From Elusimicrobiota bacterium (GTDB taxonomy: Bacteria > Elusimicrobiota > Elusimicrobia > Elusimicrobiales > UBA9959), in the NCBI GenBank assembly GCA_036574205.1, contig JAINCQ010000028.1:103554-167553 (forward strand): 64,000 bases of DNA, given 5' to 3'. A program made the position numbers and the translations under genes. Positions 32,791-46,852 of this stretch are shown here, in pieces. Position 1 is the first letter of the stretch; each line of letters starts with the position of its first letter. A model generated the notes under the pieces. The model saw only the letters and a program-made list of their open reading frames with translations. It searched no databases and was not told where the DNA came from.

Positions 32791-33681
32791 ATGTCTTTTG
32801 AGAATTTAGTTGAGGAGTTTTCATCTTATATATTGCTTGAAAAAAACCTATCTAAAAACACCAAACTTTCATATACCCGCGATATAAAAATGTTTCTTGA
32901 TTACTGCGACAAAAAAGGTGTTGATTTTTTTAACATAAAGCCAGATGTTTTAGAAAAATATCTTTTTTCACTTAAAGAGAGCGGATATAAGCTTTCAAGT
33001 ATTTTTCGCAAAGTTGAATCTATAAGGGCATTTTACAAATTTCTTTTAATAACAGATAAGATAAAAGAAAATCCTCTGGCTCATTTTAGACCTCCGCGCC
33101 TTGAAAAGAAACTTCCTGAGTTCTTATCTAATAATGATATTCAAAAAATTTTTTCACATTTTTCAGGTGAGAAATTCAATCTTTTAAGAACCTTTGCTGC
33201 TATAGATCTTTTGTACTCAAGTGGTATAAGGGTAAGTGAGCTTGCTGACCTTGTGATTGAAGGGGTTAATTTGTCTCAGTTATGGATAAGGGTTAAAGGG
33301 AAAGGTGGCAAAGAGAGGATAGTTCCTATAAACGAAAATACAGCAAATCTTTTAAAACTATATATCTCTGAAAGAGAGTTAAAGTTTTCATCAAAGGAAA
33401 CCGACTCAAATCTTTTTCTCAATAAATCTGGGAAAAAAATGAGTCGTATTCAAATCTGGAAGGATATAAAAAAAATAGCAAAAGAAGCAGGGATTGAAAA
33501 AAATATTTATCCTCATATATTCCGTCATACATTTGCCACTCATATGCTTTTGGGAGGGGCAGATTTAAGATCTATAGCCGAAATGCTCGGACATTCAAGC
33601 CTTTTAACCACACAGATATACACCCATTTAGACAACTCTGCCTTGAAAGCAATGCATAAAAAATATCACCCGAGAGGATAA
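32791..33681 (+). CDS. xerD: Site-specific tyrosine recombinase XerD/XerC
   Basis: SGIRVSEL, GKGGKER, HIFRHTFATH, LGHSSLLTTQIYTH, C-terminal HPRG. Confidence 0.88.
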   Translation: MSFENLVEEFSSYILLEKNLSKNTKLSYTRDIKMFLDYCDKKGVDFFNIKPDVLEKYLFSLKESGYKLSSIFRKVESIRAFYKFLLITDKIKENPLAHFRPPRLEKKLPEFLSNNDIQKIFSHFSGEKFNLLRTFAAIDLLYSSGIRVSELADLVIEGVNLSQLWIRVKGKGGKERIVPINENTANLLKLYISERELKFSSKETDSNLFLNKSGKKMSRIQIWKDIKKIAKEAGIEKNIYPHIFRHTFATHMLLGGADLRSIAEMLGHSSLLTTQIYTHLDNSALKAMHKKYHPRG

Positions 33682-35779: not shown

Positions 35780-35804
35780 TTGAAAAGAAGATATTTAAGG
35801 GGGA

Positions 35805-35927
35805 GTTTAGCGGAAAATTTTTGTCAATGAAAAGCTAAATTTTTTGTATAATTTTAATAATAGTTCTCTAAAATATGATGGGATTAGCGGAAAAATGCAT
35901 TTTTTCCCTGAGTAAATCCTGCCCGCA
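35805..35927 (+). promoter_or_regulatory. CRISPR leader, copy 1
   Basis: 35863-35927 is identical (65 bp) to 37767-37831, with looser similarity for another ~55 bp upstream including a TATAAT (35847-35852); abuts the first repeat. Confidence 0.8.
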
Positions 35928-36190
35928 GTCGGAAAACTGGACCCGCTTTAAAGGGGATTGAGACGTCACAAGGACGGCCACCACAATTCGTAAGGTTCTG
36001 CTGTCGGAAAACTGGACCCGCTTTAAAGGGGATTGAGACTCAAGGAACCTCGTCACAAACCTTTTATAATCGTCATACGTCGGAAAACTGGACCCGCTTT
36101 AAAGGGGATTGAGACAAAACTAAATCAACTGCATTCCCATTATATGTTTGGAAGTCGGAAAACTGGACCCGCTTTAAAGGGGATTGCAAC
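35928..36190 (+). CRISPR. CRISPR array 1: four 37-bp repeats GTCGGAAAACTGGACCCGCTTTAAAGGGGATTGAGAC, three spacers (38, 39, 38 bp); last repeat ends ATTGCAAC
   Basis: Repeats at 35928, 36003, 36079 and 36154; unique spacers. Orientation inferred from the leader, the ATTGAGAC 3' end and the degenerate terminal repeat. Confidence 0.97.
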
Positions 36191-36263
36191 TACGTAGGTT
36201 CGAATCCTAAAAAGGAATTGGGAGAATTTAAAACCAGGACTGACCGGGGCGGTCAGTCCGGTT
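36191..36263 (+). repeat. CRISPR trailer, copy 1 (tRNA T-arm-like fragment plus GC hairpin)
   Basis: 73 bp identical to 37944-38016; contains TACGTAGGTTCGAATCCTA and GGACTGACCG-GGG-CGGTCAGTCC (36237-36259). Confidence 0.92.
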
Positions 36264-36294
36264 GAAAGGATTTGAAATAGATATATGTGATATT

Positions 36295-36346
36295 TATCCT
36301 TGACAGAAGGATAAAAATGTTATATTATATCCTTTTTAAAAGGATA
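36295..36346 (+). promoter_or_regulatory. Sigma70 promoter overlapped by two TATCCT-N7-AGGATA palindromes
   Basis: TTGACA 36300-36305, 17-bp spacer, TATTAT 36323-36328; palindromes at 36295-36313 and 36328-36346. Confidence 0.75.
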
Positions 36347-36350
36347 AAAA

Positions 36351-37646
36351 ATGATAAGCAAGCAAATCCTTAAAGAAATAATTATTTCAAATGAAGAATT
36401 TATATTAAATAGAATAACCAATGTTATCCCCCGTAAAGGACTTTTTTTCCCAGAAACATTAAAAAAGGTGGTAATTCTCTATGGGATTCGCCGTAGCGGC
36501 AAAACATATATACTCTATGATTTATTTAAGAAGCATAAAGATACTGCATTATATATAGATTTTGAAGATGAAAGATTGAGTGATTTTAAGATTTCTGATT
36601 TTGAGGTATTGAAGGAAGCATTTTTAGAACTAAAACCTGAAGTATTAAAAAAGAATATAGTTTTTTTATTAGATGAGATTCATAATATAAAAGGCTGGGA
36701 AAAATTTATAAGAAGAATTGTGGAAAAAGATAATTTTAAGGTATTTATAACCGGTTCATCCTCAAGAATGATGCCCAAAGAGATTCAAACATCGCTTAGA
36801 GGAAGATCATGGAGTATTGAGATTACTCCTTTTTCTTTTAAAGAAAGTTTATTTATTAAAAATATTGATGCTGAAAGCAAAGACATTGTTTATGGAAGTG
36901 AGAAATACAGGATAAAAAAATATTTTTCTGATTATCTAAAATGGGGCGGTTTTCCAGAAGTTTTATTGGTTGAGTCGGATTTTGAGAAAAGAAAAATTAT
37001 TAAAGAGTATCTGGATGCAATGTTTTTTAAGGATCTGGTTGAAAGATTTAATATTACTAACATTACTCTTTTATCTGTATTAATGGAAAATCTTTTTTCA
37101 TCTTTTTCATCAAAATTTTCATTAAATTCTTTTTATAAACAGTATAAGCAGAAATTGCCTTTTTCAAAAGACACATTATTTTTGTATTATAAATATTTTC
37201 TTGATAGCATGCTTGTTTTTGAAATAAAAAAGTTTTCTGAATCTCCATATAAGAGAGTCAGAAATCCTGGGAAAATATATGTTGTTGATAGCGGAATTTG
37301 TAGAAAAGTTACCTCTGATGATTTGGGAAGGATAGTGGAAAATGTTGTTTTTCTTGAATTAAGAAAACAGGGAGAGGTTTTCTATTTTGAAGAAGAAAAA
37401 GAGTGCGATTTTATATTGAAGGATTTTAATAATAATTTTATGCCTTATCAGGTAGTTTATGAGCTTAATAGCGACAATGAAGAAAGAGAAATAAAAGGGC
37501 TTGTTGATGCATGTAGGTATTTTTCAAAACGTAATGGAATAATTTTAACATTTGATCAAAGTGGAAGTAGAAAGGTTGATGGAATTAACATTGAGATACT
37601 TCCTGTATGGCAATGGCTATTATTGAATGATAGAGATTATGAGTAG
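36351..37646 (+). CDS. AAA_14 ATPase with C-terminal DUF4143 (restriction-endonuclease-like) domain
   Basis: Walker A GIRRSGKT, Walker B FLLDEIH, ITGSS, LRGR, GGFPE, KIYVVDSG, ENVV, ECDFI...YQV. Confidence 0.9.
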   Translation: MISKQILKEIIISNEEFILNRITNVIPRKGLFFPETLKKVVILYGIRRSGKTYILYDLFKKHKDTALYIDFEDERLSDFKISDFEVLKEAFLELKPEVLKKNIVFLLDEIHNIKGWEKFIRRIVEKDNFKVFITGSSSRMMPKEIQTSLRGRSWSIEITPFSFKESLFIKNIDAESKDIVYGSEKYRIKKYFSDYLKWGGFPEVLLVESDFEKRKIIKEYLDAMFFKDLVERFNITNITLLSVLMENLFSSFSSKFSLNSFYKQYKQKLPFSKDTLFLYYKYFLDSMLVFEIKKFSESPYKRVRNPGKIYVVDSGICRKVTSDDLGRIVENVVFLELRKQGEVFYFEEEKECDFILKDFNNNFMPYQVVYELNSDNEEREIKGLVDACRYFSKRNGIILTFDQSGSRKVDGINIEILPVWQWLLLNDRDYE

Positions 37647-37707
37647 TAAGGGGGGATAAATCTTTGTAAGGTTTTTTTGAGTCTTTTAGTCTTGAGTAGG
37701 TTTTACT

Positions 37708-37831
37708 GGTTAGAAAAAAGAATTTTCTCAATGAAAAACTGAATTTTTGGTATAATTTTAGTAGTGGTTCTCTAAAATATGATGGGATTAGCGGAAAAAT
37801 GCATTTTTTCCCTGAGTAAATCCTGCCCGCA
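37708..37831 (+). promoter_or_regulatory. CRISPR leader, copy 2
   Basis: Near-duplicate of leader 1; contains TGGTATAAT (extended -10 like). Confidence 0.8.
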
Positions 37832-37943
37832 GTCGGAAAACTGGACCCGCTTTAAAGGGGATTGAGACTAAGTTAGTATCCATCTTTCATCTCCTTTTTT
37901 TAAAATGTCGGAAAACTGGACCCGCTTTAAAGGGGATTGCAAC
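37832..37943 (+). CRISPR. CRISPR mini-array 2: two repeats, one 38-bp spacer; last repeat ends ATTGCAAC
   Basis: Repeats at 37832-37868 and 37907-37943, identical to the array 1 consensus and terminal repeats; spacer TAAGTTAGTATCCATCTTTCATCTCCTTTTTTTAAAAT. Confidence 0.93.
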
Positions 37944-38016
37944 TACGTAGGTTCGAATCCTAAAAAGGAATTGGGAGAATTTAAAACCAGGACTGACCGG
38001 GGCGGTCAGTCCGGTT
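37944..38016 (+). repeat. CRISPR trailer, copy 2
   Basis: Identical to 36191-36263; identity stops right after the hairpin (…GTCCGGTT). Confidence 0.92.
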
Positions 38017-38129
38017 AGTGTGGAGAGGGGTTTGTTAGAGTAAGAAAAATATTTTTGCTGATATGTTGGTTTAATTTTGATAGCTTTATATATACGTAAA
38101 AAGCAAGATTTTTTAAGTTATTAAATATT

Positions 38130-39104
38130 TTAATTTTCGTAGTTGATTTCTGAAATTATTTTTTTTGCTTCAGTTATGCTTTTGGCTTTCATAAATTTGG
38201 CTCTTGTCATTGCAGCATTAGGAAAGCCACTTAACCATAGCCCGGCAAGCCTTCGTGATTTTATAAGAGCATCCCTTTCTCCAAAGATTTGTTCTGATAT
38301 TTCAAGATAGCGAATAAAAGTTGATATTTTTTTTGAAAGACTGACTTGTGTTTTTTCTTTTTTTAAAAGAAATTCTTTTATATCAGAAAATATAAAGGGA
38401 TTTGAAATTGCAGCCCTTGCTATAGATATTGCATCACATCCAGTTTTTTCAAACATTTCAATTGCTTTTTCAACTGAGTTTATTCCGCCATTTGCTATAA
38501 GGGGTATTTTTATTATGGATTTTATTTTTGCCGCTGTTTCAAAATCAATACTTCCGCTATGATACTGATTTGCAGTTCTTAAATGAATATGTATAACACC
38601 TGCTCCAGCATTTTCAAGGTCTTTTGATAAGGTAATTGCAGTTTTGTGTTTCTCATCTAAGCCAATTCGAATTTTAACTGATACTGGAATTTGAAGTTTT
38701 GATGCAAGTGTTTCAGTTATTTTACATAGTATATGTGGGTTTTTCATCAGTGAAACGCCAGCTCCAGTTTTAATAACCTTTTTAACAGGACATCCAGCAT
38801 TTATTTCTATCATATCTGCATCATTTTCCACACAGAGATTTGCTGCTTCAAGCATTGTGATTTCATCGCTTCCAAATAGCTGGATGGCTATTGGTTTGTC
38901 ATCTCTAATTTTTATAGCCTGTAAGGATTTTTTATTTCTATGTGAAAGCGCTTTTGCTGAAACCATTTCTGAAATTATAAAATCGCATCCATTTTCAAGA
39001 AGTATTTTTCTAAAAGGATAGTTTGTAATTTCAGCCATTGGAGCTAAAAATAGGTTTCCAGTTTTAAGTTTGCCTATGTTTATGGATTTTAATAACATTT
39101 TCAA
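38130..39104 (-). CDS. dusB: tRNA-dihydrouridine synthase
   Basis: LAPMA, IQLFG, INAGCP, VSVKIRIG, IANGGI. Confidence 0.9.
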   Translation of the reverse strand: MKMLLKSINIGKLKTGNLFLAPMAEITNYPFRKILLENGCDFIISEMVSAKALSHRNKKSLQAIKIRDDKPIAIQLFGSDEITMLEAANLCVENDADMIEINAGCPVKKVIKTGAGVSLMKNPHILCKITETLASKLQIPVSVKIRIGLDEKHKTAITLSKDLENAGAGVIHIHLRTANQYHSGSIDFETAAKIKSIIKIPLIANGGINSVEKAIEMFEKTGCDAISIARAAISNPFIFSDIKEFLLKKEKTQVSLSKKISTFIRYLEISEQIFGERDALIKSRRLAGLWLSGFPNAAMTRAKFMKAKSITEAKKIISEINYEN

Positions 39105-39844
39105 AATTGAATCAAATAGTTTCCATCGTGTGAGAGAGTGAAGTCTTTTAAATCTCTTTTTTCAATAAGCCTTATCTCTGATTTTGGGGCGTTTATTTTT
39201 TTAAGAACTGATAGTTGATATTCAAATGCTGCTGCTTCTATATTATAAAGATCGTCAAATTTTTTAAACTCTTTTCCAAAAGGATTTGCAAATCTCATGT
39301 CTATTTTGTTTTTACCAGGTGGGGGGATGTCTTTTTTGTCTTTTTGTTTTTTCGTTATTAGATAATATCCATGCCATCCCTGATGTGCTAAAATTGATGC
39401 CAGAAAGGTAAGTGAGGAGTTTAGATATTTATCCTGTGATATTTCAATAACAGGTTTTTCTCCATCAAAGATAAAGCCTGTTCTGTTTGACTGCCTTATT
39501 TCAAATATATATCTTCTTATCATAGTAAAACTATTTTCTTTATCATATAGCCATAAAAGCCTTAATGAATCTTTTATTTTGGATTTAAAATCTTCTTCTC
39601 CAGATATTATAAGCGCTGATGAGTATGTTTTGTCTGTAAAGTTACTCTTATCAGAATTGTTGGAAAAATTATCCTCATAGTTTATCTCTAAATCTTTTTT
39701 TTGAGCATCTTTTTTGTGAAACTCAAGTTCTTTTTTTGATTTTAAATCAATAAGCGAAATATTACTTTTATATATTTTGTATAACACTCTAGCGCCAAAA
39801 ATTAGAAGTGGCAAAACTCCAAAAAACAGTGCCTTTTTATTCAT
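39101..39844 (-). CDS. Hypothetical membrane-anchored protein with degenerate zincin-like motif (HQGWH)
   Basis: N-terminal TM segment; LASILAHQGWH...EAAAF. Confidence 0.65.
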   Translation of the reverse strand: MNKKALFFGVLPLLIFGARVLYKIYKSNISLIDLKSKKELEFHKKDAQKKDLEINYEDNFSNNSDKSNFTDKTYSSALIISGEEDFKSKIKDSLRLLWLYDKENSFTMIRRYIFEIRQSNRTGFIFDGEKPVIEISQDKYLNSSLTFLASILAHQGWHGYYLITKKQKDKKDIPPPGKNKIDMRFANPFGKEFKKFDDLYNIEAAAFEYQLSVLKKINAPKSEIRLIEKRDLKDFTLSHDGNYLIQF

Positions 39845-40241
39845 TATAAGCTTTTAGATATGACTTATAAAAAGCATCCAATTCTTTGGAAGGATCTTCA
39901 AATTCTATTATGTGTTTTTTACATCCTCTCCTTGAGCATATCTGAACCTGTCCACCATCTTTTAAGTCAAAGGCTACCATCTGGGCATTACATATATCAC
40001 ATTTTCTTGTGCTTTTTAAATCTGCATCACAATGTGGGCATCTAAATCCTGCAATTTTTCCGCGAGGGACTTCTATCCCGCTTTCTATGTTATAACTTCC
40101 GTATAATGAGCTAAGATAAAGCATTGATTTTTTACCGGCATATGTAAGTTTTACTGCGATTGCTGGCTTTTTATCTATAAGTTTCTTTTTATCAATAAGG
40201 GTCTTACCACAATGCGGACATTTTACATTAACGGTTATCAT
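39837..40241 (-). CDS. Cys-rich zinc-ribbon protein
   Basis: CPHC, CPHC, CDIC, CSRRGCKKH; AGGAG RBS. Confidence 0.75.
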   Translation of the reverse strand: MITVNVKCPHCGKTLIDKKKLIDKKPAIAVKLTYAGKKSMLYLSSLYGSYNIESGIEVPRGKIAGFRCPHCDADLKSTRKCDICNAQMVAFDLKDGGQVQICSRRGCKKHIIEFEDPSKELDAFYKSYLKAYNE

Positions 40242-40359
40242 AATCTCTCCTTCTTTTGTAAACCTTTTAATTTATATTATAACAGTTAAATATACTCATT
40301 GGCAATAAGTTGTAAGTATTCTCAAGACACATAATAACTTTCTTATGTTTAAAGGATAT

Positions 40360-43300
40360 TTATTTTTTTGTTGGTTTAAACACAAAGTTTTTTATTTTGT
40401 TTTCGAAATTGGGAAAGTTATCAAACCAGTATTGCTGATATTCTTTTAAAACAGATGCAATCCCTTTCCTGGATTTAAGGAGTAATTTTACGTTTATAAT
40501 GAGGTCATTATATAAAAAATCTATACTTTGCTTTTGTCCATTATTTTTATATTCAAATATATTAGAAAAACCATCTATTTTTCGATATCCATCTGCGTAT
40601 TCAGTCCCTTTTGGATCAATAAAGAGAATCAGGTATTGGTTATTTTTTTGTGCCCAGAAGATAAAGTCTGGCTTAAAATTTGTTATTTTATTTTCTTTAG
40701 GATTGTAATAAGGAATAAATACTTCGTCCAGCGTTTGATCAAGTTTTGAAAACATCCACCAGTCAAACTGAGTAAATACATTATCCTGTTTAGAAAGATA
40801 TTCTTCAAGTTCCTTAATAAATTTTACCTCACTATCAACATTAATAATATGATTAAGGTAGTTAATTTTTTCTGTCTCTGAAACTATTACTGGCAGATAG
40901 TAATGGTTTGCTAAATACTTGATTTTAATCATCTGATTTTCAATTTTATAGTTCTCTGCTTCTTCAAACGATTTTAATTCTTTATCGTATTCTTGTCTTC
41001 TGCCTTCTCTAAATAGTTTATCAAGTTTTTTTTCATATTCAGGTTTATTTTTTATAGTTTCGATTTTTCTTTTTATCTCTTCATACTTATTATTATCGTT
41101 AATCTTTATCTTTTTGAAATGTACAATTTCATTCTCTAATTTTTTAAACTTATCAAACTTTTTACTTTTAAGACTAAAATAATCAAAGATTCTTGTAATA
41201 ATCAATTCTGGTTCAAAAAACAAATTACTTTCATTAAAATCATAGTATTTATCTTTATCATTTAAAAAACTTATTTTTACTTTCTTTAAAACCTCTAAAT
41301 TACAATCATATTTTACTAAAGCTATCTTATCCCCAATATGATTAAAATATTTAGAGGTTAACTCAAAATCGTTTTTGTTAATAGGATATTTTATTAAATT
41401 ATCTTCTTGTGCTAAAATTATCTCGTCAGTTTTATAAACTGGTATTAAAAGAAGATGCTTTTGCACTTCGGGATTTAAAATAAATAAATCACCCAAACTT
41501 TTATCTTGTTTTTCTGCTTTTAGTATTGCAATAGTTTCTTTTAAATTAGTTGCATTTGTTCCAAAAATAAATAGGCTTTCAATTGGAAAAATCAGATTTT
41601 TTATTTTTTCAAATAACTCCTCGTTAATAATTTTGGCGTTAAGTAAATTTTGAAGTCGTCTTTTTTGGTATTTTTGCGGCTCTATCCTGATCCCTCTACC
41701 TATTGATTGAAGAATAAATTTTTTTGCATCACGTTCAACACCGATATTAATAAACAAAATCAGGTTTGGTCGGTTAGAATCCCAACCTTCATAGAAAGAA
41801 CGAGAACCCATTAAAATGTTTATATCAGAATCATCAGTATTGATTGCCTTAAAGTAGCTTTCGTTTTCAAAACTCTCGTTTATTTCATATCCTTTCAGTT
41901 TGTTTTTAAGCCAGCCAGAAATATCGCCGATCTTAATCAAGGCAAAAGGTTTATCAGATGTCATAAGTCTAAAAATAAGTTCTTGCCGATTTCCAGGGAT
42001 TTTTAAAACTTCAATCTTACCCGGAGTTTTAGCGTTCAAAACACATTTTAAAATGTCGTCATAATCCAATTCTGAAACTAAATCGGAGTTAATGACACAT
42101 TCCAAATCTTCAAATACGAGTTTAGCGTTGTTGTTAAATTCCTGGATAATTTCCTCTTTTGCCTTTTTAATCAAATCGGGTTTAACTTCATTTTTCGCAA
42201 CTTTCTCTAATTCTCTAAAAAATATTTCTAAATCAGATTGTTCTACATCTACGGAATTAACCAGTGTTAAAAGTAATGGGTGGTGATATAGCGAATTATT
42301 CACTTCTCTGATTTTTTCAAAATATTTATTGATATAAGCCAAAAGTAATAAGGTCTTTAAAACAATTTTTTGCTTTTCAAGTGGCGAGAAATCAGTTGAG
42401 TTACGAAACGCGCTGATTTCGGCAGAAGATACATAAATATGCTTACCATATCCTTCTTCAACAAACTTTGAAAGATTGAAATTGAAAGCGCAAGTCGCAA
42501 AATCCCATGGATCTGTGAATGTAGCAGAGAAATTAAATAAAAAACCATTTCTTGAAAGTATTGAATATAGAATCTGCCTTTTGCTGTCTTCTTTATCACC
42601 TTTATGTGCTTCATCTAAAAGGATATACCAATTGCCATCATCGTCATAATTTTTAAAATTAACAATTTTTTCTTTATGTTCGTCAGAAATTAAATCAGAA
42701 CGGTAATAAAAAACAGTAACCTCATTTTTGGCAAACGGTAAAGCATTTTCGCGCTTGACATTCTCATAATCTCTCAGATTTTTAAGATTTATTTTTATGC
42801 CTGCCTGCGTGCCGCCCGCGGGCAGTTTAAAATTGAAGTTATTAAACTCATCAACATGATTTTTAAATTGTTCCAGAAGATCATCGCGATGCGTCAGAAA
42901 AATAATATCCTTCGCCGGTAATTCTTTTTCAGCTATGAGTTTCCCTAAAAGTTCAATTAGCTTAACAATAATAAGAGTCTTACCTGATCCAGTTGCCATC
43001 CAGAAACTCATACGGTTGATAAAATATGCAAAAGAAATCTTTGAATCTATTACAGGATAATCCTTATCGTATTCTTTTAAATATTTTGTTATCTTTTTGC
43101 CTTCTTTCTTTTTCAAGTCATAATCAAAATTTTCTTCTAAACCATTAAGTTTATAATGCTCAAATAAAGCTACTTTATCAGCATTTTTTTCTTTGAAATA
43201 CAGGTGTAATGTCTTCAATGCGTTTTTCAAAGCCTCTTGCTGAAAATCAAAAAGTGTTTTATCTTTTGAAAATCGGGCTAAACCTGTCTGTGCCGTGCTT

Positions 43301-43389
43301 GTTGCAGCAGGTAGGGCAAAAACTTGCCACTTTACAGGTAAATTTTCAAAAGGAATTTCATCTATAATATTTTGTAAGTATAGTTTCAT
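40360..43389 (-). CDS. res: Type III restriction endonuclease (Res) subunit
   Basis: MATGSGKT, LDEAH, FSAT, EGWD, QSIGRGIR helicase motifs and C-terminal PDF...IDPKG nuclease motif. Confidence 0.93.
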   Translation of the reverse strand: MKLYLQNIIDEIPFENLPVKWQVFALPAATSTAQTGLARFSKDKTLFDFQQEALKNALKTLHLYFKEKNADKVALFEHYKLNGLEENFDYDLKKKEGKKITKYLKEYDKDYPVIDSKISFAYFINRMSFWMATGSGKTLIIVKLIELLGKLIAEKELPAKDIIFLTHRDDLLEQFKNHVDEFNNFNFKLPAGGTQAGIKINLKNLRDYENVKRENALPFAKNEVTVFYYRSDLISDEHKEKIVNFKNYDDDGNWYILLDEAHKGDKEDSKRQILYSILSRNGFLFNFSATFTDPWDFATCAFNFNLSKFVEEGYGKHIYVSSAEISAFRNSTDFSPLEKQKIVLKTLLLLAYINKYFEKIREVNNSLYHHPLLLTLVNSVDVEQSDLEIFFRELEKVAKNEVKPDLIKKAKEEIIQEFNNNAKLVFEDLECVINSDLVSELDYDDILKCVLNAKTPGKIEVLKIPGNRQELIFRLMTSDKPFALIKIGDISGWLKNKLKGYEINESFENESYFKAINTDDSDINILMGSRSFYEGWDSNRPNLILFINIGVERDAKKFILQSIGRGIRIEPQKYQKRRLQNLLNAKIINEELFEKIKNLIFPIESLFIFGTNATNLKETIAILKAEKQDKSLGDLFILNPEVQKHLLLIPVYKTDEIILAQEDNLIKYPINKNDFELTSKYFNHIGDKIALVKYDCNLEVLKKVKISFLNDKDKYYDFNESNLFFEPELIITRIFDYFSLKSKKFDKFKKLENEIVHFKKIKINDNNKYEEIKRKIETIKNKPEYEKKLDKLFREGRRQEYDKELKSFEEAENYKIENQMIKIKYLANHYYLPVIVSETEKINYLNHIINVDSEVKFIKELEEYLSKQDNVFTQFDWWMFSKLDQTLDEVFIPYYNPKENKITNFKPDFIFWAQKNNQYLILFIDPKGTEYADGYRKIDGFSNIFEYKNNGQKQSIDFLYNDLIINVKLLLKSRKGIASVLKEYQQYWFDNFPNFENKIKNFVFKPTKK
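42799..42825. repeat. In-frame GC-rich palindromic insertion in res
   Basis: GCCTGCCTGCGTGCCGCCCGCGGGCAG in an AT-rich gene; encodes LPAGGTQAG. Confidence 0.7.
43283..43315. repeat. In-frame GC-rich palindromic insertion in res
   Basis: CCTGTCTGTGCCGTGCTTGTTGCAGCAGGTAGG (33 bp, ends pair with G-U wobbles); encodes LPAATSTAQTG. Confidence 0.7.
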
Positions 43390-44375
43390 GATATTAAAAG
43401 GTTCGTAACAATTTTAATTAAAGTATCTTTATCCTCCGATTTACTTATTGCTATTAAAAGTACTAAAGCAGTTAAAGTATTATCGTTTATTTTCCTTTCT
43501 CCTGTTTTGAGATATAAATATTTATTTTTTTCCAAAAAGTAGATAAAAAGAAAAGATGCTATGCGTTTATTACCATCAATAAAGGGATGATCTTTAATAA
43601 TAAAGTACAAAAGATGGGCATCTTTTTCTTCTAATGATGGATATAATTCTTTTTTGCCGAAAGTTTGATAGATATTTTCAATTATTCCTTTAAATTTTTC
43701 GTCATTTTCCTGTCCAAATAATTTGCCAGCTTCTTTTTTAGAAATGAGGTCTTTTTTTATTTCTTCAATAATTTTTTTAGCATCTTCATATGTTAAAACA
43801 TATTTATCTTGTTCTTTTTTAACCAGATTTAATTTTTCTTTATCATACTGTTCAAGCAATGTAAAAGTTTTAGAGTAACTCGCAAGCAGGTTTAAAATTT
43901 CCTGCTCTTGTCCACTAAGCAGTTTGTGTCTTGATTTTTCTTGCAGAAAAAAAATAGTTTGCTGCAATTCTTTTAATTCATTCTGTACCTCTAAAAGGCG
44001 TTTTTCGTTAACAGCATAACCCTTTAATAAATAATTTTTTAAGATTTTAGTTGCCCATCGCCTGAAATGTATGGCTCTGGCTGAGTTTACTCTATATCCA
44101 ACAGCAAGAATGACATCCAGATTATAAAAATTTACCGGTTTATCTGACCCAGCAATGTGCATTTTTTGCACATTGCTTTTTTTATCCACCTCTTTATCCG
44201 CCAAAATTTTATTAATATGCTTTGTTATAACCGATCGTTCTTTGTTAAAAAGTCTGGCGATCTCCTCCTGACAAAGCCACACAGTTTCTTTTTCAAAACG
44301 GACTTCAAATTGAATCTCATTTTGTTGGGATTTATAAAAAACTATTTCACCTTTTCTGCAAGTTTTATTTATCAT
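43386..44375 (-). CDS. RhuM-domain / Fic-Doc family protein
   Basis: ETVWL...YNLDVILAVGYRVNS...FRRWAT (RhuM) plus HPFIDGNKR (Fic/Doc). Confidence 0.92.
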   Translation of the reverse strand: MINKTCRKGEIVFYKSQQNEIQFEVRFEKETVWLCQEEIARLFNKERSVITKHINKILADKEVDKKSNVQKMHIAGSDKPVNFYNLDVILAVGYRVNSARAIHFRRWATKILKNYLLKGYAVNEKRLLEVQNELKELQQTIFFLQEKSRHKLLSGQEQEILNLLASYSKTFTLLEQYDKEKLNLVKKEQDKYVLTYEDAKKIIEEIKKDLISKKEAGKLFGQENDEKFKGIIENIYQTFGKKELYPSLEEKDAHLLYFIIKDHPFIDGNKRIASFLFIYFLEKNKYLYLKTGERKINDNTLTALVLLIAISKSEDKDTLIKIVTNLLIS

Positions 44376-44387
44376 AAATCTTTATTT

Positions 44388-46852
44388 TTATTCCCACCAG
44401 ATTAATGGTTTAATAAGTTTATAATCTAAATCTTTTATATTTATTTTTGTCTCATCTTCAAACTCCACTTTGTCATTAGTGATTTTCTTAATCCATTTAC
44501 CGGTTAGATTAGATAGAGTTTCAGCGATGTCTATATTGGGATAGAGCTTTGATAAATCTACTTTGACTCGATTATTTTTATAATCAATCTCTAATGCTTT
44601 AAGCATTTTTTCATCTTTCATAAAGACATATTCCTGATACGGACTTTTTCCTGGCATATCAAACAAATCCCCATCTTCATATTTACAATTTGCTAAAGTT
44701 TCCTCATATTGTTCAAGTTCGTAATATTTAAAAAAGCCGCCACCTTGATATTCTTTTATTTCTTTTGAAATACCGGATTTATCATAGGCTAAAACTTTTT
44801 TCATTCTTGGTAAAACTACACTATAAAAGTGTCCTCCCATTTCTATGCCAATCCATTTCCTGCCAAGCTTGTGTGCTACTGCTGTTGTAGTGCCAGAGCC
44901 AAGGAAAAAATCCATAACTAAATCACTTTCATTAGAAGTAGATTCTATAACACGCTTTAGAAGGATTTCGGAGTTTTCGGTTGAAAAACTCCATCCAAAT
45001 GAATAACTACCTATATCTGTCCAGTTAGAATCTACAGGGGTTAATTTTGACTCCAAATATTGAGGTAAGCCCTTTTGTTTATTTCCTAAGACATCAATAT
45101 ATTCATATGCTGTATAAATCCTAATTCTTTTTTCTTTATTAAGTTGATCAAATTTTGTTTGAGAAAACCTCCAATGATGACCTTTTGGTGCAATAAATTT
45201 TATTTTCCCTAATTCAATTATGTTGGCATCCTTATTTTCTTTTGGAGAAACAGCGTTCACCCATCTTGTTTCTCTTCCTCTTTCTTTGAAAATCATATTA
45301 AAAGTAATTTTTGTATTTCTTCCATAAAAGTAAAGCAAATCGTAGGCTGGGTTAAATCGTTCTGGAACATTTGTCCCCTGATAATTAACTTTTCGAAGAG
45401 ATATCTCATTCCTAAAATTCTCCTCTCCAAATATCTCATCCATCAGACATCTTACAATCCAATTTCCATTATAATCACACCGGACAAAAATACTTCCTTT
45501 TTCATTAAGCCAATTTTTAGCAAGTCGCAATCTATTTTCAAGTAGTGTAGCCCAGTTAGCATCTTTGTAATTTGTGCGGTATAAAAACTGGTCAGAGGAA
45601 TCTAAATTAAACGGCGGATCTATATAAATTGTCTGGACTTTTTCTTTGAATTTAGACAGGATTGTATTTAGTGCTTGATAGTTTTCGCTTTTTATAAGCC
45701 AGCCGTCTAGAGATTTATCTAAATCTTCAAATTGATTTAGAATCTCAAGTTCTATGCTTTAAAATATTTTGTATCGATAGGTAAATGCTTGTATTTTTCA
45801 GATAAGTATTTGCCTGTTAAATTACTTTCAAAAATATCTTCCATATTAAAATTTTTATCAATAATTCCAAGTTCCAGCCATTCTTTTATTTGTTCTTTTA
45901 TATTCTCGTGTTTAAAAATTTTTTCAATAAGTTCTAGATTCTTTATCCTGTCCAGCGTAATCACATAGTTTGAGTTTTTAACAAACTTCGGCTTGTTCCA
46001 TATTTTTACCAATTCATCTTCAAACTGTGAAATAAAGTCAATGATTTTAAATGCAATGTCTTTTAAGATTTGCAACTCATTAACTCTTTCTGCGCTCCAT
46101 TCTTTTGCCCCTTCCCAGAAATACTGATAACTCCATAGTTTAAACTGCTCTTGCAAAAATGCTTTAGCGTTTTTATTAATAAAAAAATCAACTTCACTTT
46201 GCTTTTCAAAAATTTTAAAGGCTTGCTCTAATTGTTCTTCTGTAATCACAATACCTTTTTTCTTTACAGCTTTTAATATCTCGTCCTGTTTTGTTTTTGT
46301 CCCTTTTTCTGAGTATTGAACACTAAAAACAATCGTTCTATCTTCCTTAACCTCATCTAATTCAAAAATCAGTGATCGCTTTTCATTGGCTTTTTTGTTT
46401 TCTATATTTGAAGCATTAAAATAAAACTTAAATCCATTAATCTCTACTGGTAAACTTCTAAAAATCCTGTCAGTTTTGATATAATAGAGCATCTGAGTTT
46501 TCCAAAAAAGAATAACATTTTTTTCATCAGTATAAACTTTTTCATATATATTATTATGAAACGGTGTTGAATTAAAATAGATTGAACCACTTTCTGTGAA
46601 ATATCGGTTAAAAAAAGAATAGAGTTTGTCAAAAAGCTCGTCTTTAAATTTTGAGTGTCTGTCTGTGCGTGGATCATCTCCAGAGGAATGTCTTTTTAGC
46701 GCATCTTCAATATCTTTTTGAAGAATACTTTCAATTTTGCGATAGTAATTTGATTTTATTTTCATCAAATTAATAAAACCACCCTTACCTTCAATATTAG
46801 CACCAATAAACACATTCCGTAGTGCTTCGTAAAATTTTTGTTCTTTTGTCAT
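44388..46852 (-). pseudogene. mod: Type III m6A DNA methyltransferase (Mod) split by a -1 frameshift (about 821 aa if repaired)
   Basis: ORF 45752-46852 ends KYFKA*; the -1 frame continues IELEILNQ...IYIDPPFN (motif IV) into ORF 44388-45530 with DFFLGSGTT (motif I). Break at about 45756. Confidence 0.88.
46658..46686. repeat. Degenerate in-frame GC-rich insertion in mod
   Basis: TCTGTCTGTGCGTGGATCATCTCCAGAGG begins like the two res insertions; lies in HSSGDDPRTDRHS. Confidence 0.5.

Follow-up and report, generated by a model that had tools for sequence, protein, structure and literature searches.

Several described kinds of array end come close to the one analyzed here, among CRISPR arrays (clusters of regularly interspaced short palindromic repeats). 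Homing guides of CRISPR-associated transposons (CASTs) involve atypical repeats in type I-F3 and a delocalized short CRISPR RNA (crRNA) in type V-K. In degenerate terminal repeats, the last, leader-distal repeat differs from the other copies in its 3' part. Auto spacers are host-identical sequences that stand in spacer phase, with an altered adjacent repeat and with the cognate cas genes missing. Here we describe two small CRISPR arrays in a 64,000-nucleotide (nt) stretch of an Elusimicrobiota genome (contig JAINCQ010000028.1, positions 103,554 to 167,553; G000:C19:103554-167553 in our numbering), which is called the window below. In each of them the last repeat is a slight variant, and directly behind it stands an exact 20-nt copy of part of the host's own tRNA-Tyr gene. 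In our view this terminal segment is a relic without present activity; most probably a self-derived spacer left it as a stump where an orphan array had decayed, and a duplication came later. The probability of this reading is roughly 50%.

The two arrays share some features with each of the described kinds. As in degenerate terminal repeats, the aberrant copy is the last leader-distal repeat and the differences are limited to the 3' tag, but what comes next is 20 nt copied exactly from a host tRNA gene instead of an anonymous trailer. As in auto spacers, host-identical sequence stands in spacer phase next to an altered repeat, and cognate cas genes are missing; in contrast to auto spacers, only half of a spacer length matches and no repeat follows downstream. 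The likeness to CAST homing guides is that a short stretch behind a variant repeat matches a conserved tRNA gene of the host, whereas no Tn7-like genes and no type I or V-K effector were found and the repeat is of the type III-B kind. Type III-B arrays have in common with the window arrays a repeat length of 37 nt, a small hairpin and an 8-nt ATTGNNAC tag in the repeat, a spacer length of 38-39 nt, and a repeat and leader motif related to those of cmr-flanked arrays; the genome differs in that no cmr or cas6 genes were found in it, at 95.3% completeness. The attachment (att) sites of tyrosine integrases in tRNA genes share with the segment a symmetric T-arm with a 7-nt loop, but the identity here stops short of the tRNA 3' end, no integrase accompanies it, and it lies inside a 110-nt duplicate. 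Finally, like the mini-arrays of mobile elements treated in passages of one study (PMC11656645), the window arrays have one to three spacers, a leader of their own, no cas genes and a location in acquired DNA, but their host has no matching CRISPR-Cas system to exploit, and no protospacer was found. The locus brings together kinds that have been described before (orphan array, degenerate terminal repeat, self-derived sequence), and its novelty is low. Our literature search found no paper in which part of a tRNA takes the place of a spacer after a terminal repeat.

The tRNA-Tyr origin of the segment is clear. The 20-mer CTACGTAGGTTCGAATCCTA is located at 36190-36209 and 37943-37962, counting the last C of the repeat as its first base. 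The genome (1.85 Mb, 43 contigs) has 43 tRNA genes according to ARAGORN, with a single tRNA-Tyr(GTA) gene on contig C5 (C5:181-266), and the 20-mer is identical to C5:237-256 at all 20 positions, on the same strand as the tRNA, i.e., in sense orientation. Elsewhere in the genome it does not occur: its only copies are those in the tRNA-Tyr gene and at the two array ends. The generic T-loop motif GGTTCGAATCC is present in 12 of the 43 tRNA genes, and only tRNA-Tyr matches in full, the next best gene reaching 16/20; the probability that all nine flanking bases would by chance fit any of the 12 genes is about 5e-5. The 20-mer derives from tRNA-Tyr, from the junction of the variable arm and the T-arm. 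A preliminary description of the window, made from its letters alone, had noted a resemblance to this junction, in sense orientation, and the comparison with all tRNA genes that it proposed extends the match beyond the generic motif. It had also stated that no complete tRNA is present; indeed, ARAGORN predicts no tRNA gene in the window, and no Rfam tRNA match at E<=5 is found in 35780-38130.

The borders of the match are abrupt on both sides. The arrays read GCAA|C...CCTA|AAAAAGG, and the tRNA-Tyr gene reads GCCC|...CCTA|CCCCAACCA. Thus, the match ends at CCTA inside the T-stem, where the tRNA gene goes on with CCCCAACCA and the array trailer with AAAAAGG. At its other end, the tRNA-Tyr match begins at the first base after the full 37-nt repeat, that is, in spacer phase, just where a spacer would sit behind the variant repeat, as had been noticed earlier. 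Beyond the 20-mer, the trailer and the DNA around tRNA-Tyr have only one 11-mer in common (E = 0.026). A derivation of the trailer from the surroundings of the tRNA-Tyr gene was considered and rejected, as nothing past the 20-mer matches.

The spelling of the 20-mer varies among bacteria. Five of 60 related genomes contain it exactly, all of them from family f1 and with one copy each; the genome studied here alone has three copies. A variant with one mismatch is found in 39 further relatives. The nearest repeat in a public genome is that of an Omnitrophota metagenome-assembled genome (G061); of 65 genomes from its phylum, 0 contain the 20-mer exactly, and G061's own best match, presumably in its tRNA-Tyr gene, differs at three of 20 positions. 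By this comparison of sequences, the 20-mer has the spelling of the host family.

Both arrays lie on the plus strand. Array 1 (35928-36190) consists of four 37-nt repeats (35928-35964, 36003-36039, 36079-36115 and 36154-36190), and its three spacers measure 38, 39 and 38 nt; array 2 (37832-37943) consists of two 37-nt repeats (37832-37868 and 37907-37943) and one 38-nt spacer. The features of the locus are as follows.

35814-35927, plus strand: leader of array 1; the 151-nt block 35814-35964 is 94% identical to 37718-37868
35928-36153, plus strand: body of array 1, with three standard repeats (tag ATTGAGAC) and spacers at 35965-36002, 36040-36078 and 36116-36153
36154-36190, plus strand: terminal repeat of array 1, tag ATTGCAAC, a tag spelling also present in the related arrays L021-L024
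36190-36209, plus strand: tRNA-Tyr T-arm 20-mer, copy 1; its first base is common with the repeat, and it is identical to C5:237-256
36210-36236, plus strand: unique trailer of 27 nt, origin not matched elsewhere
36237-36263, plus strand: G+C-rich palindromic hairpin (palindrome 36237-36259), which marks the end of the duplicated block
36351-37646, plus strand: AAA_14/DUF4143 ATPase gene between the arrays (Pfam AAA_14 1.1e-36, DUF4143 1.3e-14)
37718-37831, plus strand: leader of array 2, from block comparison with the array 1 leader
37832-37906, plus strand: body of array 2, with one standard repeat and one spacer (37869-37906)
37907-37943, plus strand: terminal repeat of array 2, tag ATTGCAAC
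37943-37962, plus strand: tRNA-Tyr T-arm 20-mer, copy 2
37963-38016, plus strand: trailer and hairpin, copy 2 (hairpin 37990-38012), abutting the inverted dus block

Only six copies of the repeat exist genome-wide, all in these two arrays (search with <=8 mismatches). Four of them carry the tag ATTGAGAC, and the terminal copy of each array carries ATTGCAAC, the two tags differing by 2 nt at repeat positions 33-34. The last repeats are variant and are followed by the 20-mer, as first described; they are leader-distal, with changes confined to the 3' part, which is the form of a degenerate terminal repeat. The leaders of the two arrays are identical over the proximal ~95 nt, every mismatch being in the distal promoter part. 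Neither the four spacers nor the 38 nt that follow the last repeat have a match with <=9 mismatches in the genome itself; the spacers have no match in plasmid or phage records, and exact scans of viral contigs were blank (5/5). The search of phage records gave a sole, irrelevant 35-nt match of the leader in a uvrA gene. A crude CRISPR finder also reported a ~76-nt tandem repeat at C13:9576-9728, which is not CRISPR-like.

The closest relatives of the arrays belong to type III-B systems. A scan with the exact 20-nt core of the repeat against genomes of 185,579 species revealed one locus, in the Omnitrophota genome G061, with more than 91 related repeats ending in ATTGCGAC. The leader side of this array is occupied by cmr1, cas10/cmr2, cmr3, cmr4, cmr5, cmr6, a CARF gene and cas1; a short open reading frame (ORF) beside the leader is read as a putative cas2, and a weak cas6 match lies past the trailer. 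A scan of metagenomes revealed four further loci with related repeats (L021-L024). In one of them, L024, the leader adjoins an ORF that by its position is a putative cas2, and the motif GATTAGCGGAAA and the layout of the proximal leader are common to L024 and the window. The kinship of repeats and leaders with arrays flanked by cmr and cas genes therefore assigns the family to type III-B and sets the orientation of the arrays; by sequence comparison, the window arrays are members of this type III-B (Cmr) repeat and leader family.

Comparison within the family bears directly on the terminal unit. The tag ATTGCAAC is the regular tag in L022 and L023; in L021 and L024 the regular tag is ATTGCGAC, and the decaying repeat at the array end reads ATTGCAAC. 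ATTGCAAC is an ordinary spelling in the repeat family, and the earlier characterization of the terminal repeat as atypical does not hold. No tRNA-like sequence follows the array end in any of the five related arrays (G061 and L021-L024), so that the proposed search for other arrays ending likewise came back empty. The array in G061 ends in a truncated repeat. None of the 91 spacers extracted from G061 contains the canonical T-loop GGTTCGAATCC, one matches a loose T-loop-like pattern, and none is significantly similar to the trailer of the window arrays. A likeness of one G061 spacer to the T-arm, noticed by eye, was rejected because it scores at the null level. Among the related loci, L022 (JUEG02001270.1, minus strand, ~2001-2140) is itself an orphan mini-array with three repeats, of which repeats 2 and 3 are only 11 nt apart; its neighbors are GNAT, Arr, YCII and TerD genes, and no cas or Tn7 genes are found within 2 kb.

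The two window arrays are orphans, without cognate cas genes. No cas genes were found in Pfam scans of the 56 ORFs of the window, and the whole genome has no RAMP, Cas6_C or Cas5d match, although the controls were positive in 4-5 genomes. Neither cmr genes nor Cas6 are present in the genome, a Cmr4 search giving 0 matches. In a tblastn search with ten Cas proteins of G061, only Cas1 matched (28%), and the match was to the cas1 gene of a type II-C system. This type II-C cas9-cas1-cas2 locus (C19:92.2-96.6 kb) is the sole cas locus of the genome and has a separate array of its own, with 12 repeats of 36 nt and 30-nt spacers. It is situated ~7 kb upstream of the window start (G000:C19:91349-96630) and consists of cas9 (1034 amino acids), cas1 and cas2.

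Genes of Tn7-like transposition were likewise not found. None of the 56 scanned ORFs of the window has a Tn7-type domain, and no type I or V-K effector is found beside the arrays in the window Pfam scans, Cas12k itself not having been searched for. Over the whole genome, the search for rve (TnsB-type) domains gave one weak solitary match below the cut-off on C11, and TniQ was not found, though the control of this search found nothing anywhere.

These absences weigh on an alternative in which the terminal unit works as a short self-guide. According to it, the array end would be expressed as a crRNA-like RNA whose first 19 nt are the tRNA-Tyr sense strand, and an effector acting in trans would employ this RNA in homing, regulation or tolerance at the tRNA-Tyr gene; such an effector could be a Cmr-type complex like that of the same-genus genome G001 or could come from a mobile element. 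The form fits, as the spacer phase behind a variant repeat is taken up by a short stretch identical to a conserved host tRNA gene. The host-specific spelling of the 20-mer, the full identity of the trailer between copies whose distal leaders have diverged, and the existence of a Cmr locus in the genus would also agree with it, and CASTs are described, in passages of PMC11656645, as homing near tRNA genes by means of guides with partly matching repeats. However, the assembly has no effector, Cas6 or Tn7-type genes (with the caveat on the TniQ control given above), the arrays are not beside tRNA-Tyr, and no element is inserted at the tRNA-Tyr locus. Moreover, the repeat family is that of RNA-targeting type III-B systems, and a guide with the tRNA's own sense is unable to base-pair with it. 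Within the family, ATTGCAAC is an ordinary tag, the two copies amount to one duplication, and none of the five related arrays ends likewise. We therefore consider a functional self-guide improbable. Of the features that mark a CAST homing guide, one of four is observed, the variant repeat with a match to a conserved gene; transposition genes, an effector and an insertion downstream of the match are not. The homing guide of CAST type proposed in the preliminary description is not supported by the context of the arrays. That the terminal unit is a working privatised self-guide similar to those of CASTs, which would mark or home to the tRNA-Tyr gene or act as a tolerance or regulatory RNA, and which would belong to no known transposon but to a repeat family of type III, is in our view quite improbable.

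The identity of the two array ends has a simple explanation. The last repeat and the 73 nt of trailer make up a block of 110 nt in which the two arrays are 100% identical (36154-36263 and 37907-38016). The one sequencing run listed for 35780-38130 is a public DNA run from a hot-spring metagenome, no RNA run being listed; in its independent assembly, the depth of this block is 30.4, compared to 15.9-17.2 for the flanks; since this is about twice the depth of the flanks, the two copies are real. A "skips 75" joint in the contigs of the same DNA run was considered as a variant without spacer and rejected, being the expected unitig collapse of a 33-nt shared repeat. The earlier observation that the array end is preserved in both arrays is correct as to the sequence, but because the 110-nt block is a perfect duplicate, the two ends reflect one event and are not independent evidence.

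The trailer and the hairpin that follow the 20-mer are of different nature. A search of the genome with the 29-nt query 36209-36237 (<=8 mismatches) finds nothing beyond chance except the two array copies of the trailer 36210-36236, and no homologue is present in the 60 relatives among the matches listed. The trailer was also considered as part of a dispersed element; this was rejected, as the stretch between the 20-mer and the hairpin is unique. The hairpin (36237-36259 and 37990-38012) is a perfect G+C-rich palindrome dispersed over 26 loci in the genome, the 24 further loci on other contigs including C5:7234, C7:37009 and C17:4355. Its copies are often found inside larger repeated modules extending ~50 nt or more on either side, and no match is seen in the same-genus genomes G001 and G002 among the matches listed. 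By its sequence organization the family looks similar to miniature inverted-repeat transposable elements or repetitive extragenic palindromes, and in prediction the hairpin is terminator-like on the minus strand. A decayed repeat was sought downstream of the 20-mer, and the best local alignments were no better than those of 72-260 of 500 shuffles. The stretch AAAACCAGGAC, a candidate remnant of a repeat start, was rejected: its resemblance is due to the A-tract that belongs to the dispersed hairpin.

Folding of the array end suggests one more possible role, that of a structural 3' element of the precursor crRNA, in which the T-arm-like hairpin, alone or together with GGGGATTG of the repeat, would aid 3' processing or stability of the transcript ahead of the dispersed hairpin. 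The preliminary description had likewise proposed a tRNA-mimic processing signal, and the context lends it no support. The predicted fold pairs GGGAUU of the repeat with AAUCCU of the T-arm and has a strong hairpin downstream, and its calculated minimum free energy is -37.9 kcal/mol (z = -3.0). Much of this predicted stability, however, appears to come from the dispersed G+C-rich hairpin (a 10-pair stem at 26 loci), the T-arm stem alone has only 4 base pairs, and no related array carries such an element. In type III biogenesis, Cas6 cleavage inside the terminal repeat frees the last true spacer, and nothing downstream is needed. We find a structural role very improbable.

The most probable scenario is that of a spacer stump. 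The terminal repeat would be the usual non-homogenised last repeat with the normal tag of its family, ATTGCAAC, and the 19-20 nt behind it would be what remains of a self-derived spacer or, alternatively, of another captured host fragment. A spacer from the sense strand of a tRNA would be tolerated and could persist, because no RNA complementary to it would serve as its target. What else belonged to the spacer, and whatever came after it, may have been replaced as the old end decayed beside the dispersed hairpin. Then the unit of leader, array and trailer would have been duplicated around the ATPase gene, and both arrays show the same end because of this duplication. At present the segment is probably functionless, at most included in a transcript that starts at the leader promoter and runs to the hairpin, as the genome has nothing to process or use its RNA.

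Several observations are consistent with this scenario. The exact spacer phase of the segment points to the adaptation machinery, and adaptation in this lineage is plausible because the same-genus genome G001 has a Cmr locus. Self-targeting spacers are reportedly tolerated after the loss of CRISPR-Cas activity, a result attributed to Stern and co-authors in 2010. In the passages of PMC3285040 that concern them, self-matching spacers are treated as accidents, tolerated when the system is inactive. For type III-A systems of S. thermophilus, part of another study (PMC8860593) describes spacer uptake that is independent of the protospacer adjacent motif and of orientation, with clusters of rRNA and tRNA genes among the most heavily sampled host sites.

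Other observations weigh against the origin of the segment as a spacer. Of the features of a self-derived spacer, host-identical sequence directly after a repeat is present, and full-length identity and a following repeat are absent. The match to the tRNA covers no more than 19-20 nt, where ~38 nt would be expected, and downstream of the 20-mer there is no repeat and no significant remnant of one in local alignments against 500 shuffles; because of this half-length match and the missing remnant, the spacer origin needs an additional truncation that left no trace. The 20-mer occupies the end of the array that is farthest from the leader and therefore oldest. None of the 60 relatives has the repeat, however, and the oldest-end position sits awkwardly with acquisition in this lineage, as the array looks recently acquired. 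In the related array of G061, no spacer with a canonical T-loop is seen among the 91 extracted. The identity of proximal leaders, repeats and trailers, combined with diverged distal leaders, could reflect constraint rather than recency. Finally, a cognate effector could have been missed, as the genome is 95% complete and metagenome-assembled genomes are often without plasmids.

The genomic neighborhood gives further evidence on the history of the locus. In G001 the gene order is xer-PHP-nadA-Zn ribbon-p247-dus-glyK-gfo, with a spacer of ~45 nt after nadA. In the genome studied here, nadA is followed by leader, array 1 and trailer, the AAA_14/DUF4143 ATPase gene, and leader, array 2 and trailer; after these, the minus strand carries the inverted Zn-p247-dus block, a type III restriction-modification pair and a RhuM/Fic gene, and glyK comes next. 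The block of Zn ribbon, p247 and dus is inverted compared to G001 (window region 38130-46852); the genes of the defense cluster are a ResIII helicase (40360-43389), the RhuM/Fic gene (43386-44375) and an N6/N4 methylase (44388-45530). The same region also holds an ORF of 366 amino acids without a family. In G002, another arrangement is observed, with glyK inverted beside nadA. One inversion breakpoint is at the hairpin that ends the array 2 trailer, and a 21-nt inverted pair links this hairpin end with the dus-glyK spacer. The arrays lie on an acquired defense islet between nadA and dus. In the simplest history, a defense islet of ~11 kb would have been inserted after nadA and then inverted, with one breakpoint at the array 2 hairpin and the other in the dus-glyK spacer.

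The ATPase gene between the arrays has a promoter region (36295-36350) in which two TATCCTT...AAGGATA palindromes surround a TTGACA-17-TATTAT promoter. The orthologous ATPase in G004 is 54% identical and has a similar promoter region, and similar sequence is also found at sites in G001 and G002, which suggests that the palindromes may be a conserved operator.

Type III-B systems are present in the close relatives of the host. Cmr4 is found in three of the 60 relatives, G001 included; therefore, type III-B systems circulate in the genus. The locus of G001 (G001:C27, L052/L054) has the order cas6-cas10-cmr3-cmr4-...-cas1, and its contig ends ~160 nt past the last ORF, by its position a putative cas2, so the array of this locus is not assembled. 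The stretch after this ORF and the window leaders share short collinear blocks only, each with E of 0.03-0.5, a hint only of a relationship. No arrays with the window tag are assembled in G001, G002, G017 or G040.

The matched gene and the arrays are on different contigs, tRNA-Tyr on C5 and the arrays on C19. The tRNA-Tyr gene is followed by tRNA-Ser, an extracytoplasmic function (ECF) sigma factor and a resistance-nodulation-division (RND) efflux system, with no mobile element inserted at the locus. The last 17 nt of tRNA-Tyr (C5 locus L004, 250-266) are repeated at 404-420, 137 nt downstream. The piece between these copies resembles a structured element GGATTYGAA...CGAATCC that is also found after tRNA-Tyr in G055 (L025:1603). 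This downstream insert is absent from the relatives G010 and G014, and the duplicate has no match to an Rfam family (RtT or other); an att scar, a tRNA-linked repeat and a small RNA gene are all conceivable readings of it. In addition, the 3' part of tRNA-Gly(CCC) is present in two partial copies, arranged in tandem next to the intact gene, at C31:34680-34862.

Rearrangements of this kind lend some support to an origin without CRISPR adaptation, in which the segment is a recombination scar, non-functional today, that is either an att-type core (TAGG / TTCGAAT / CCTA) or a filler fragment. It would have been left by an integrative element targeting tRNA-Tyr or by illegitimate recombination during rearrangement of the islet or of the array end. 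The fragment spans exactly the symmetric T-arm, and the work of Williams from 2002 is said to show that tyrosine integrases crossing over in the T-loop use this symmetric region. The locus has been rearranged, Zn-p247-dus being inverted relative to G001 with a breakpoint at the array 2 trailer hairpin, and other duplicates of tRNA 3' ends exist in the genome (the 17 nt of tRNA-Tyr, 137 nt downstream, and the two tandem tRNA-Gly fragments on C31).

Nevertheless, the identity ends inside the T-stem, short of the tRNA 3' end that blocks of attL or attR normally reach, and a random junction is not expected exactly at the end of a full-length repeat. Only two tyrosine recombinases are encoded in the genome, and both are Xer-like: one is beside topA, and the other, near the arrays (window 32791-33681, beside recA), is conserved in the same place in G001. 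The trailer has no homologue next to tRNA-Tyr in the 60 relatives among the matches listed, and the two copies of the segment lie inside the 110-nt duplicate and do not bound an island; the tRNA-Tyr duplicate on C5 may itself be a tRNA-linked repeat instead of an att scar. Of the features of an att site, neither identity up to the tRNA 3' end, nor an integrase at the element, nor a pair bounding it together with the intact tRNA is observed. An att scar had been among the first suggestions for the segment; the context gives it no support and several observations count against it, and we retain a recombination scar as a less likely rival to the decayed self-derived spacer.

In summary, an orphan pair of type III-B-type arrays ending in a scrap of host tRNA-Tyr fits the known picture in which self-derived spacers are accidental and survive only in dead systems. 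It also calls for caution, as a variant repeat followed by a short tRNA match mimics a CAST homing guide, and gene context alone distinguishes the two. Should the segment prove functional after all, no short guide matching its own host would have been seen before it outside CASTs, and one would have to ask to what use type III arrays put the tRNA sequences of their hosts.

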